Below, piece by piece: positions 2,334 through 38,312 of a stretch of DNA of 64,000 nucleotides; position 1 is the first letter of the stretch; each line of letters opens with the position of its first letter. The DNA comes from an uncultured Microcoleus sp. (GTDB taxonomy: Bacteria > Cyanobacteriota > Cyanobacteriia > Cyanobacteriales > Coleofasciculaceae): positions 71,586 through 135,585 of the forward strand of contig CAZPRJ010000002.1 in assembly GCA_964588805.1 (NCBI GenBank). Direction: 5' to 3'. The notes beneath the pieces are model-generated. The model did not search any database. It saw only the letters and a list, made by a program, of their open reading frames with translations, and was not told the DNA's origin. The position numbers and the translations under genes are program-made.

Positions 2334-2405
2334 TACAGGTAAGAGCATGGTATGCCATGCCCCGACGAAGATGGTGTATTAAGGTCGAAAATGTGTAAGT
2401 CCTGC
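2334..2405. mobile_element. MITE-like dispersed repeat, copy A (degenerate left end), subfamily sharing ACGAAGATGGTGTATTAAGGTC-AAAATG-GTAAGTCCTG with copy D
   Basis: Near-identical ~45 bp segment to 17536-17578; right terminus GTAAGTCCTG at 2396-2405. Confidence 0.55.
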
Positions 2406-2439
2406 GAGTACTAATGTTGCAATAAATAACGCTCACCCC

Positions 2440-2605
2440 AGAGCTTCCTGACCGGAGATGATACTCTAGTGAGGTTATCTTGTCGGTTCTAGTGGGGAAC
2501 AGCCGCTAGAGGTAACGGGGAAAGAGCAGTGTAAATCTGCCGCTGTCCCGCAACTGTGAAGAAGTGAACTCTAACCACTTCCAGCCAGGATGCCCGCCGA
2601 TATCA
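2440..2605 (+). ncRNA. Cobalamin (B12) riboswitch in the cbiMNQO leader
   Basis: Conserved cobalamin-riboswitch core strings GGGGAAC, GGGAAAGAGCAGTGTAAATCTGCCGCTGTCCCGCAACTGTGAAG and a B12-box-like AGCCAGGATGCCCGCC, immediately 5' of a cobalt transporter operon. Confidence 0.65.
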
Positions 2606-2637
2606 ACCAACACGTTTACTCAATCTGCGAGGTACAG

Positions 2638-3399
2638 ATGAAACGGCATCGACGCATACTCAGCCTGGGTGCAATGGCAGGGCTGTCATTCTACTTAGTC
2701 ATCGCTACACCCAATCCTGCCTATGCCATGCATATTATGGAAGGCTTTTTACCCATTGGTTGGGCAATTTTTTGGTGGGCGGTATTTATTCCCTTTTTTG
2801 TTTTGGGGCTACGTTCAATCACGGGAATTACTAAACAAAACCCTGAGTTGAAATTGTTGTTAGCTTTAGCAGGCGCTTTTGCCTTTGTCCTATCTGCCCT
2901 AAAAATTCCATCCGTAACTGGTAGTTGTTCTCACCCCACAGGAACAGGACTGGGGGCAGTGTTATTTGGCCCCCTAACAATGACCGTATTAGGAAGTTTA
3001 GTTTTGTTGTTTCAAGCCCTATTACTTGCTCATGGGGGATTGACAACACTGGGGGCTAATGCCGTTTCAATGGCAGTTGTAGGGCCGTTTGTTGCTTATG
3101 GAATCTATCGTCTGATCATGCAGGTGAGTGGGGCACAACGGTTAGCTATCTTTCTATCTGCTGCATTAGCCAATCTCATCACTTATGTAATCACATCCAT
3201 CCAGCTAGCCCTGGCCTTTCCGGCAGCAACCGGTGGATTCATGGCATCTTTGATCAAATTTGCAGGCATTTTTGCGATTACACAGATTCCCTTGGCAATT
3301 AGTGAAGGATTGCTGACGGTGTTGGTTTGGAATTGGTTGCAATCTTACAACCGCGAAGAATTGACAGTATTAAAATTAATCAAACCAGGAGTTGATTAA
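2638..3399 (+). CDS. cbiM: Cobalt ECF transporter S component CbiM
   Basis: Signal-peptide-like N-terminus then the MHIMEGFLP CbiM signature; multi-TM. Start moved from ORF-track 2590 to the ATG at 2638, which has a GAGG Shine-Dalgarno and leaves the riboswitch non-coding. Confidence 0.9.
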
Positions 3400-3401
3400 A
3401 G

Positions 3402-3731
3402 GTGAATAGAAAGAAACAGGGATGGAATAATTGGTTATTATTATTGGGTGTGTTGGTGTTAACGATTGCGCCGCTTTTCATCGTTAGAGAAGCCGAATTT
3501 GGAGGAGCAGATGGAGAGGCAGAAGCGGCGATTTCAGAAGTTCAGCCTAACTATCAACCCTGGTTTCAACCTTTAATTGAACCCGCTAGTAAAGAAATCG
3601 AATCATTGCTATTTGCTTCTCAGGCAGCATTGGGAGCTGGAATTATCGGTTATGCCATTGGTATCTACAAAGGGCGTCAAGAACAGAAGATGAAATCCTC
3701 AACTCGAAACTGGAATGAATATCCAGATTGA
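3402..3731 (+). CDS. cbiN: Cobalt transport protein CbiN
   Basis: ~100 aa with two TM helices flanking a soluble loop, located between cbiM and cbiQ. Confidence 0.75.
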   Translation: MNRKKQGWNNWLLLLGVLVLTIAPLFIVREAEFGGADGEAEAAISEVQPNYQPWFQPLIEPASKEIESLLFASQAALGAGIIGYAIGIYKGRQEQKMKSSTRNWNEYPD

Positions 3732-35633: not shown

Positions 35634-36050
35634 ATGATGCAGCTTTTAAAAATGAAATTCAAATTCAGCAACCTACGGACATTGATAGCCGTATGCTTAA
35701 TACAACTAGTCCTATTTTTGGGTTTATCAATTAGCAATTTTGGCATTGCCGATGCTCAAGCTAAACCTCTGACTCTAGTTGCTGAGTTATATCGAGAAAA
35801 ACCCTTAAATCTAGACGAAGCTGCTGACAAATCTTCAGATGCTTCCCAAAAAGTCCTTGAAGATATAGAGACTACTAAAAAAGTGATTGGTAAGACACCA
35901 AAGAGAAATGAATTTATCGAACGTGGGCGAGAAAAAGCCAGTAAAAAATGGAATGACTTAGCAGAGAAAGCTCAAAAATCCCAAAATTCTGATGAGTCTT
36001 TATCGGCTACCGAAGAACAGGCGCTCAAACGTTTCATCCGCAAAGACTAA
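35634..36050 (+). CDS. Secreted hypothetical protein, Lys/Glu-rich
   Basis: Signal peptide then charged low-complexity region. Confidence 0.35.
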   Translation: MMQLLKMKFKFSNLRTLIAVCLIQLVLFLGLSISNFGIADAQAKPLTLVAELYREKPLNLDEAADKSSDASQKVLEDIETTKKVIGKTPKRNEFIERGREKASKKWNDLAEKAQKSQNSDESLSATEEQALKRFIRKD

Positions 36051-36630
36051 GCGTCCAGTATTTCCCTCGTAGTTATTTAATGTCTCTGCCTTTTGCCTTC
36101 TGTTTTTTGCTATCAATGTGTAAATCCTACCAAATTCCCGAAAATTTTGCTAATTTTGACTAAATAGCATCGTTAAGAGCCATGAAATTAGAGGTAGGCT
36201 TCATCTTTACCGACTCGCAAACAGGCTTCTCTTGGAAAATCGCGTCTCCTTGGCTGAGTCGCTGGCGAAAACAGCAAATAGGGTGGATTTGTCAACGGGC
36301 AGGCTTTCATCCTCTACAAGACCCAATTTCCTCTTGGAAGGAACACGAAATTCTGCCTTTACTGAATGTTGAAAATCAATTAATGGATTACAACACCCAA
36401 TAATTTATATTAAACTGTCACGCTTACAAATGGCATTGTGACAATTACAAAAAGACTGGCTCTCCTTGAATTTACTAATTTGGAATTGCTCAATACGTGA
36501 GTTAATTTCAATGAATTAACTAGGATTCAAACTGTATCCCTAAGGGTATAACTCTCAGGGTGGATAATTTTATCTATCAATTGCTCTAAACTGTTGCGTG
36601 TAATACAAATAGTTTTGGAGACAATCTATT

Positions 36631-36984
36631 ATGGCTAAAGATAAATTACCCAAACATCAAGTTGATACTGATGTAGATACCTACGATAGAGGGATTGTAC
36701 CGGCTGAAACAGCAGCTCGAAAAGAAAGAGAAGGGGCAGAATATAAGCATGTACCCCAGGGTGATAAACCTGAAACTAGAGGTTATACCGTAGATAAAGA
36801 GGGACTTGCCAATAACTTTGCCATTGAACCTGAAATGTATGTCAATGAACCAGGCGATTTAAGAGAAGAACACGAGGAAGAGATTGCAGAACGAACTGAA
36901 GAATTTAGAGAAGTCAACGAAGATAAAGATGGGCAATTGACAATGGAATCAGACAAGCGAGGTAAAGGTACAGGGATTATCTAA
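36631..36984 (+). CDS. Acidic hypothetical protein
   Basis: 117 aa, highly charged; no recognised domain. Confidence 0.4.
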   Translation: MAKDKLPKHQVDTDVDTYDRGIVPAETAARKEREGAEYKHVPQGDKPETRGYTVDKEGLANNFAIEPEMYVNEPGDLREEHEEEIAERTEEFREVNEDKDGQLTMESDKRGKGTGII

Positions 36985-37236
36985 TTCATTGGACGCAGGC
37001 AATCATTGATTTCATTTTAGATTCGTGTGATGTTCGATCACAAAAGGCGATCGCGTCTATCGCCTAATCTCAACCCTCAAATACCGTAAACCTCATTAAT
37101 CAAATAGCTGGCATGGAAAAATCTTCGATCAGCCAGCTAATTTTTTTTGTTTGCCTGAGATAGAAAATACATATTCATCCAAATTCTCGGTTTGCCGCTA
37201 AAATATCTTGGCGTTGACAATAAGAAGGCAAAAACG

Positions 37237-38109
37237 ATGGCTAAGGCAAAGATTGGGATTATTGGGGGTAGCGGACTGTATAAAATGGAAGCCCTCAAAG
37301 ACGTGGAAGAGGTACGAGTCGATACACCCTTTGGTACACCCTCAGATGCTTTCATTGTCGGTACACTTTCAGGCACACCCGTTGCTTTCTTAGCACGTCA
37401 TGGACGAAATCATCACCTCATGCCATCCGAGTTGCCATTTCGGGCAAATATCTATGCCATGAAGCAATTGGGTGTGGAATATCTCATCTCTGCTTCTGCT
37501 GTGGGTTCGCTTAAAGAAGAGGCGAAACCTTTAGATATGGTTGTACCCGACCAATTTATTGACCGGACTAAAAATCGAATTTCTACCTTTTTTGGAGAGG
37601 GAATTGTTGCTCACATTGCCTTTGGAAACCCAGTTTGCCCTAAAGTAGCTGGCGTTTTAGCTGATGCAGTAGCGAGTCTAGAGTTACCTGATGTGGCGCT
37701 ACACCGAGGAGGAACTTATGTTTGTATGGAAGGGCCTGCCTTTTCTACAAAAGCAGAATCCAATCTTTACCGCAGTTGGGGAGCCACTATTATCGGGATG
37801 ACAAATCTGCCAGAGGCCAAGCTGGCACGGGAAGCGGAAATTGCTTATGCGACATTAGCGCTGGTAACTGATTATGATTGCTGGCATCCCGACCATGACA
37901 GCGTAACGGTAGAAATGGTGATTGCTAATCTACAACGCAATGCTACCAATGCTCAGAAAGTGATTATAGAAACTGTGCGGCGTTTAGCTGAAAATCCGCC
38001 CATGTCGGAAGCTCATTCTGCATTGAAATATGCAATTTTGACCTCGTTAGATAAAGTGCCAACTGCAACCAAGGATAAGTTAGGATTGTTGCTGAAAAAG
38101 TACTTGTAG
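37237..38109 (+). CDS. mtnP: S-methyl-5'-thioadenosine phosphorylase
   Basis: [12 protein letters not shown]-terminus and PNP/MTAP fold motifs; start at [11 protein letters not shown]. Confidence 0.9.
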
Positions 38110-38222
38110 TCGTTCATTGCATTAATTGTGAGAGGTTAAATCTTGTTCGTAGTAAGCGCTTCAGCGCTTTTCTTGCAACTATAAACTTATCAGAATTAAT
38201 GAGTTGTTGACTAAACTGAATA

Positions 38223-38312
38223 GGACTTATGCAAGAACACCATATATACCAAGGGCGCACGTCGTTGTAACCCTACCAAAGGTAGTTCAAAATTCAATTT
38301 GCGTAAGTCCTG
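38223..38312. mobile_element. MITE-like dispersed repeat, copy E
   Basis: AGGACTTATGC...CAAGGGCGCACG...CAATTTGCGTAAGTCCTG. Confidence 0.55.

Follow-up and report, generated by a model that had tools for sequence, protein, structure and literature searches.

Five short intergenic repeats in an uncultured Microcoleus are very probably miniature transposable elements of the ISPlag1/ISAba11 group

Five short repeats lie scattered through a 64-kb stretch (64,000 nt, hereafter the window) of contig CAZPRJ010000002.1 from an uncultured Microcoleus sp. The window is cyanobacterial by content, carrying HIP1 (GCGATCGC) sites, heptamer and octamer tandem repeats, the small RNA NsiR4 and a cobalamin riboswitch. 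The repeat unit is ~92 nt long with CAGGACTTAC...GTAAGTCCTG ends and is present as four full copies and one truncated copy, named A to E from left to right, and all five copies reported in an initial annotation of this DNA were found close to where it had placed them. Judging from their sequences, the repeats are very probably transposable elements of the miniature inverted-repeat type (MITEs) derived from the ISPlag1/ISAba11 group of the IS701 family of insertion sequences. Allowing one mismatch, the end GTAAGTCCTG is found at 13 places in the window where 3.0 would be expected, and each of 100 shuffles fell short of 13. A repeat finder paired B with C over 93 nt (71%), B with the inverted E over 91 nt (75%) and A with D over 46 nt (93%). 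Copy boundaries were refined with an nhmmer profile of the 92-nt sub-family, and the same profile revealed no sixth copy in the 64-kb window at E < 0.1.

The canonical element has a 13-bp terminus, CAGGACTTACGCA, at both ends, a short arm, a long arm and a central GC-rich hairpin tagged with GTAG, and the consensus of the 92-nt sub-family reads CAGGACTTACGCAAATTnACnTTTAAAACGCCATnTGTAGGGGCGAATGG.CATTCGCCCTTACTAnATnTnGTGTCTnTGCGTAAGTCCTG. The short arm is the ~29-bp inverted repeat of ISPlag1, an insertion sequence of Planktothrix agardhii, its reverse complement aligning gap-free over ~29 nt; in copy C, for instance, the short arm CAGGACTTACGCAAGAACTCCACATATAG is identical to the right-end repeat of ISPlag1, CAGGACTTACGCAAGCACGCTATATATAG, at 24 of 29 positions. 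The long arm is the same repeat with ~12 nt inserted after the terminus.

Copy B (7279-7370, plus strand, nhmmer E = 2.6e-22) is a full 92-nt element with perfect 10-bp terminal inverted repeats and a perfect central palindrome of 24 nt at 7317-7340 (AAGGGCGCATGGCCATGCGCCCTT). It sits between the 3' end of a serpin gene (7402) and an open reading frame (ORF) at 6787-7179, and no target duplication is preserved in its flanks (TTGTT/GTACT). Copy C (12782-12873, plus strand, E = 2.6e-20), 59 nt upstream of the znuB start, is full-length and decayed: its left end has degenerated to CTGTACTTAC, its central hairpin is lost and its flanks (TTAGT/TAGGT) are identical at three of five positions. Copy E (38221-38312, minus strand, E = 5e-19), which lies between convergent PNP_UDP_1 and glycosyltransferase genes, is again a full 92 nt, with one terminus reading TAGGACTTAT, terminal repeats that agree at 12 of 14 positions and a decayed central hairpin. 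Its flanks, CTGAA (38216-38220) and TTGAA (38313-38317), are a four-of-five remnant of a target duplication.

The two remaining copies are rearranged. Copy D (17457-17577, plus strand) is a chimeric unit of 121 nt that the profile matches on both strands (3.5e-14 and 6.8e-07), located between a convergent ORF (16823-17449) and znuC, 22 nt downstream of the latter. From left to right it consists of a long arm, the hairpin, a partial short arm and a second, inverted long arm (17532-17577), bounded by perfect terminal repeats of 11 bp, and it may most simply be a recombinant of two oppositely oriented copies. Copy A (2339-2404, minus strand) is truncated and matches model positions 1-64 only (E = 0.007). 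It lies 10 nt past the stop of a CHAT/TPR gene and 62 nt upstream of the cobalamin riboswitch (2467-2615) of the cbiMQO operon. What remains is one terminal repeat (GTAAGTCCTG, 2395-2404) together with the long arm and a hairpin of small size (GCATGG..CCATGC), while the short arm is gone. Read as its reverse complement, the copy can be aligned with the long arm of each of the other four, and A is thus a minus-strand element that lacks its short arm.

Across these copies, which range from 66 to 121 nt, the terminal inverted repeats are perfect in B and D, degenerate in C and reduced to a single end in A. The initial annotation had ascribed a conserved segment, CCATTGGTAGG, and a perfect GC-rich palindrome to the copies in general. 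Copies B to E carry the segment with 0-1 changes, and the perfect palindrome is found in B only, as that of D is imperfect, that of A is a different one and those of C and E are lost. The 45-bp module that it described in A and D is real, corresponding to the 46-nt match above, but it is the long arm of the element in inverted orientation and not the marker of a sub-family. All five copies are intergenic, a location in keeping with MITEs, and no ORF of at least 90 aa lies over them bar a spurious 92-aa ORF (7325-7603) that is largely antisense to the serpin gene.

Relatives of these elements were sought in one genome per prokaryotic species with the pattern CAGGACTTAC-N71-101-GTAAGTCCTG, and at least 118 loci with these ends were recovered. 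Among the matches listed, on which the counts in this paragraph are based, the hosts are mostly cyanobacteria of many orders (Trichodesmium, Okeania, Coleofasciculus, Microseira, Nostoc, Cylindrospermum, Westiellopsis, Planktothrix, Kamptonema, Waterburya and Pseudanabaenaceae). The other hosts are Anaerolineae/Chloroflexi, Poribacteria, Moduliflexus, three lineages of the candidate phyla radiation (CPR), Bacteroidota, Abditibacteriaceae, Obscuribacterales and a metagenome-assembled genome (MAG) of Bacillota. Positions 11-13, which the pattern left unconstrained, are GCA in 104 of 129 copies, and at the other end TGC is seen in 103 of 129; this conservation beyond the searched 10-mer indicates that the real terminus is the 13-mer CAGGACTTACGCA. 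Between these fixed ends lie many unrelated types of interior, which often differ entirely from host to host. An exact 5-bp flanking duplication borders 74 of 125 copies, rising to 89 of 125 when one mismatch is allowed, compared with 1 of 125 in a shifted control and 0-9 of 125 for other lengths (3-4 and 6-8 bp). The duplicated target sites are 78% A+T, and duplications were found outside the cyanobacteria too, in Poribacteria, Moduliflexus, Anaerolineales and Bacteroidota. The conserved unconstrained bases, the unrelated interiors and the 5-bp duplications together identify these loci as transposon insertions and not as chance matches. The possibility, raised with the initial annotation, that a few intergenic regions resemble each other by chance and have neither further copies nor conserved termini elsewhere clearly fails against so many loci with conserved ends and target duplications. 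Finally, the 92-nt sub-family itself, with the same length and architecture, is found in Trichodesmium, Okeania, Coleofasciculaceae, Dapis and several MAGs.

Some copies depart from the 5-bp rule. Two CPR copies, in Daviesbacteria (L023) and Gottesmanbacteria (L084), are flanked by 7-bp duplications (TCATAAA and TAATTAA), and a copy in Abditibacteriaceae (L090) by one of 6 bp (GTTGTT); these may reflect a transposase variant with a different stagger. In the IMG/VR collection, four viral contigs (L212, L213/L214, L215) carry MITEs with the same terminus, and clean 5-bp duplications are present in two of them (ACCTA and AGAAA). We also observed that a Poribacteria contig (L103, CAXXLX010000001.1) encodes, ~350 bp from a solitary MITE terminus, a 352-aa RRXRR-domain protein (1414-2472; PF14239, 3e-26), which looks IscB/IsrB-like by its N-terminal motif.

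A full-text literature search with a 12-mer of the terminus led to the description of ISPlag1 by Christiansen et al. 2008 (PMC2464740); the 10-mer alone returned eukaryotic primer matches only. ISPlag1 of P. agardhii measures 1,306 bp, its inverted repeat being 29 bp long (CAGGACTTACGCAAGCACGCTATATATAG) and its transposase, of the IS701 group, 337 aa; internally deleted remnants of 197 bp at the mcy locus have been implicated in the loss of the microcystin cluster (PMC2464740). We find a 1,306-bp element with exact CAGGACTTACGCA / TGCGTAAGTCCTG ends on plasmid 1 of P. agardhii NIES-204, and its 337-aa ORF contains the published CAIRWKIEEFHREIK motif. Ends of the form TAGGACTTACGCATTGAC are carried by ISAba11 (Acinetobacter, 1,101 bp), ISCysp21, ISPna6 and elements of Nostoc sp. 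C057, plasmid 2 of Nostoc linckia NIES-25 and Legionella israelensis, and the terminus of ISCysp20 is a close variant. The (C/T)AGGACTTACGCA termini of these autonomous elements are matched by the MITE ends. Autonomous elements and MITEs also have the 5-bp size of the target duplication in common: AAAGA, TAATT, AAATT, AACTT and AATCA were found around ISAba11, ISPna6, the Nostoc pair and the Legionella element, and no 5-bp duplication was seen in the flanks of ISCysp21 and ISPlag1. All four transposases that were scanned (ISPlag1, ISAba11, Nostoc sp. C057 and the Bacteroidetes protein described below) score above the cut-off of NCBIfam model NF049921 for the IS701 family; the first three of them do so by a wide margin, and their mutual identity is only ~29-45%. 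The annotations of the ISCysp20/21 and ISPna6 transposases read IS701-like. A reading of the repeats as previously unclassified, as the initial annotation had called them, and as having no partner does not hold, as their termini are those of the ISPlag1/ISAba11 group, whose ISPlag1 repeat was published in 2008 (PMC2464740), and insertion sequences with matching ends, namely ISPlag1, ISAba11 and their kin, were recovered from other genomes.

Nostoc linckia NIES-25 is the one genome in which MITEs were seen together with a full-length element of matching ends, the element lying on plasmid 2 and the MITEs (L009, L025, L099, L102 and L116) on the chromosome. All-against-all BLASTP of the ORFs adjoining solitary termini at the listed loci found no common protein, but a motif search identified an IS701 transposase beside a MITE in a Bacteroidetes contig (L110; NF049921, E = 5e-97), and this protein served as the seed for tblastn against plasmids. 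In the Bacteroidetes MAG, the MITE (1276-1376) is of the CAGGACTTACGCA type with a TATAT duplication and lies 8 bp from the IS701-family element (108-1267), the ends of which (CTCACCTTACGCA) are related but distinct. Elements of Stanieria, Cyanobacterium HL-69 and Polaromonas that belong to the same transposase clade end in CTGATGTTACGCA. Given these differences, only the inner TTACGCA core is common to the wider family.

In most relatives the central hairpin starts with GTAG and ends with CTAC, as in GTAGGGGCGATTC..GAATCGCCCCTAC, and among 30 copies its stems have 20 distinct sequences, many of them perfectly palindromic, suggesting that the structure of the hairpin is kept and not its sequence. 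Stem pairs in relatives include GGGCGAAT/ATTCGCCC, GGGTGAACG/CGTTCACCC, GGGGCGATTC/GAATCGCCCC and GGGCGTAT/ATACGCCC, and the pair in copy B of the window is GGGCGCATG/CATGCGCCC. RNAalifold recovered only the terminal stem from the 30-copy alignment because loop indels shift the hairpin out of register, and the stems were analysed sequence by sequence. Folded as single-stranded DNA, B reaches -22.5 kcal/mol (z = -5.4) and D -25.3 kcal/mol (z = -6.0); C (z = -0.1) and E (z = -1.3) fold no better than shuffled sequences.

The loop of the hairpin varies in length as well. A sister sub-family in Nostoc, including Nostoc linckia, has 94-nt and 120-nt forms (L009 1195-1314 and L025 6480-6599 versus L026, L099 and L102) that differ by a 26-nt insertion in the hairpin loop (ACCCTGCGGGAAGCCGCTCCGCGTCTAC), and loop insertions of 21-28 nt were also observed in copies from Okeania, Oscillatoria and MAGs (L016, L036, L062, L085, L093, L094, L114 and L115).

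Stable hairpins next to genes could instead be structures recruited by the host, such as terminators or attenuators, mRNA-stabilising 3' hairpins or small RNAs, in which case conservation would reflect function. Such a role would suit the positions of B, D and E just downstream of gene 3' ends (D and E between convergent genes), the folding of B and D far beyond that of shuffles and the compensatory stem changes among relatives. However, no Rfam 15 model matches any copy, the only matches in the window being a tRNA, the cobalamin riboswitch and NsiR4, and no terminator- or promoter-like site lies over copies A-D, the range of that scan excluding E; host function is therefore not indicated. Further, no T-runs follow the hairpins, C and E do not fold beyond expectation and the flanking genes differ from copy to copy. 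Exaptation, if it took place, would come second to the transposon origin attested by the duplications and the match to insertion sequence ends, and we consider it very improbable that host function is the explanation.

Another possibility is that activity resides in the GTAG hairpin (GTAGGGGCG) itself, the conservation of the ends being incidental. The copies would then be palindromes like repetitive extragenic palindromes (REPs) or bacterial interspersed mosaic elements (BIMEs), spread by a REP-associated tyrosine transposase (RAYT) of the IS200/IS605 type. The GTAG...CTAC tags of the central hairpin in most relatives fit this proposal, and GTAG-tagged REPs have been reported in Anabaena, Nostoc and Cyanothece (PMC3733652). 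However, terminal inverted repeats and target duplications are both absent from REPs, whereas in these elements conservation is strongest at the ends and the 5-bp duplications bound the whole 92-nt unit. MITEs with the same ends but without such a hairpin are common, and C and E kept their ends after losing it, which makes a REP origin very improbable. Least credible of all is that each copy is an independent remnant left by deletion in situ of a full-length ISPlag1-like element and never spread as a 92-nt unit, for although the 197-bp ISPlag1 remnants at the mcy locus are a precedent (PMC2464740), independent deletions would not give B, C, D and E an interior and a 91-92-nt architecture in common with each other and with other genera, and the long-arm insertion and GTAG hairpin have no counterpart beside ISPlag1 ends.

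We therefore favour a MITE origin within the ISPlag1/ISAba11 group, and several observations weigh against it. Four of the five window copies have no recognisable 5-bp duplication, E alone keeping four of five bases, and no transposase of the ISAba11 group was detected within the 64-kb window by tblastn with four transposases at E <= 1e-3. Among metagenome relatives of the gene beside E, the nearest reach no more than 64% identity and the gene pair is not kept in them, and exact matches come from the same population only. Finally, the compensatory variation of the stems hints at a structural constraint that a purely selfish element would not by itself account for. The mobility of the window copies is deduced from their relatives. 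We infer that an ISPlag1-like transposase moved them and that they have no host function. The view of the initial annotation that they are non-autonomous and mobilised in trans is supported.

We hypothesize that, provided in trans from elsewhere in the genome or formerly present there, a DDE transposase of the ISPlag1/ISAba11 group would bind both termini, excise or copy the element and insert it at an AT-rich intergenic site, where a 5-bp staggered cut would duplicate 5 bp of the target. The window copies look like old insertions, since the end of C is mutated, the hairpins of C and E have decayed, A is truncated, D is recombinant and a remnant of the duplication persists only at E.

The 92-nt sub-family is a further member of a described group of insertion sequence ends, and the mild novelty lies in how widely the superfamily extends and in the hairpin being conserved. 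A literature search that did not take in the cyanobacterial MITE surveys (Lin 2011, Elhai 2008 and the Nezha paper) found no paper naming the sub-family. We put forward only tentatively a wider proposal, apparently undescribed as such: that ISAba11-type termini define a MITE superfamily spanning phyla (Cyanobacteria, Chloroflexi, Poribacteria, CPR, Bacteroidota, Abditibacteria and some viral contigs), that its 92-nt sub-family spread horizontally among filamentous cyanobacteria and that the GTAG hairpin is kept by compensatory change. If this were true, the maintained hairpin would have to play a structural part in transposition or serve the host.

Copies C and D stand at the two edges, and in the same orientation, of a 4.9-kb insert (12724-17598) that splits znuB (11875-12723) from znuA and znuC (17599-19644, minus strand) and has a GC content of 39-41% compared with 46-49% on either side. 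The initial annotation saw these two copies as delimiting the island. Geometrically this is correct, but a pair moving the island is not supported by a common 5-bp duplication: we considered a composite transposon in which C and D moved the 4.9 kb together, and the outer flanks (TTAGT and TAATA) are unlike. It is possible that the borders of AT-rich islands are simply good MITE targets. The insert encodes an AAA_15/AAA_21 ATPase (14576-15694, minus strand) that resembles candidate anti-phage ATPases (PADLOC PDC-M25A 3e-23, AriA, HEC-01A and AbiLi), together with an overlapping 185-aa ORF without a family match, a 270-bp tandem repeat (16008-16589) and an unknown 208-aa ORF.

The window has other features of note. 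Tandem arrays of octamers and heptamers (CCCCAGCT-type and ACTCCTG-type) at 18409-18526, 29331-29384 and 63157-63297 are typical of the short tandem repeat sequences of filamentous cyanobacteria, and one of them occupies a place directly between znuC and znuA. At 9007-11667 (plus strand) the window encodes an 886-aa full-length homologue of the Major Vault Protein (Pfam Vault repeats, MVP_shoulder 3e-54), which adjoins the gene for the 450-aa serpin (7402-8754, minus strand, E = 1e-125), and since vault proteins occur mainly in eukaryotes, a bacterial homologue beside a serpin may merit separate study.

For annotation, these results mean that such repeats can be labelled as MITEs of the ISPlag1/ISAba11 group instead of unknown intergenic repeats. 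The elements also explain contig breaks in cyanobacterial assemblies, because such termini are where several loci stop. In Planktothrix, ISPlag1 is known for inactivating and deleting the microcystin gene cluster, and abundant non-autonomous relatives are both substrates for recombination and marks of the places open to an active transposase. One and the same 13-bp end is used by transposases only ~29% identical, in hosts ranging from Acinetobacter through cyanobacteria to CPR bacteria, and the breadth of this common terminus is a modest but useful sign that recognition of the ends by the transposase is conserved in the group.

Among named systems, ISPlag1 has the identical 13-bp terminus, CAGGACTTACGCA, and a 29-bp repeat that aligns without gaps to the MITE short arm, but it is a 1,306-bp element encoding its own transposase, whereas the window elements are non-coding units of 92-121 nt in a different, uncultured cyanobacterium and possess a long arm and central hairpin that ISPlag1 lacks. 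The ISAba11 group (ISAba11, ISCysp20/21 and ISPna6) has the terminus TAGGACTTACGCA, which differs in the first base only, and copy E has this T form at one end. Beyond base 13, however, these elements continue with TTGAC..., where the MITE short arm follows the ISPlag1 pattern, and their transposases are ~29% identical to that of ISPlag1. Elhai et al. in 2008 reportedly described very small mobile dispersed repeats inside 'minitransposons', and their possible likeness to the 21-28-nt loop insertions is a lead. Nezha of Anabaena variabilis and Nostoc PCC 7120, attributed to Zhou et al. in 2008, is said to measure ~130-170 bp and to have ISNpu3-type terminal repeats. It resembles the window elements as a cyanobacterial MITE with terminal repeats, a stable fold and insertion into AT-rich intergenic DNA. 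The reference copy of Nezha is 138 bp long with a 10-bp direct repeat, CATTATCTAC (PMC6042816). Identity with Nezha/ISNpu3 was rejected on duplication length (10 versus 5 bp) and size (138 versus 92 nt), a separation drawn from description and not from the sequence of the terminal repeats. Finally, the GTAG-12/15/16 REPs of Di Nocera et al. 2013 (PMC3733652) have a similar GTAG...CTAC-tagged GC-rich hairpin, but in the window elements this hairpin is one part of a larger unit with terminal repeats and target duplications.

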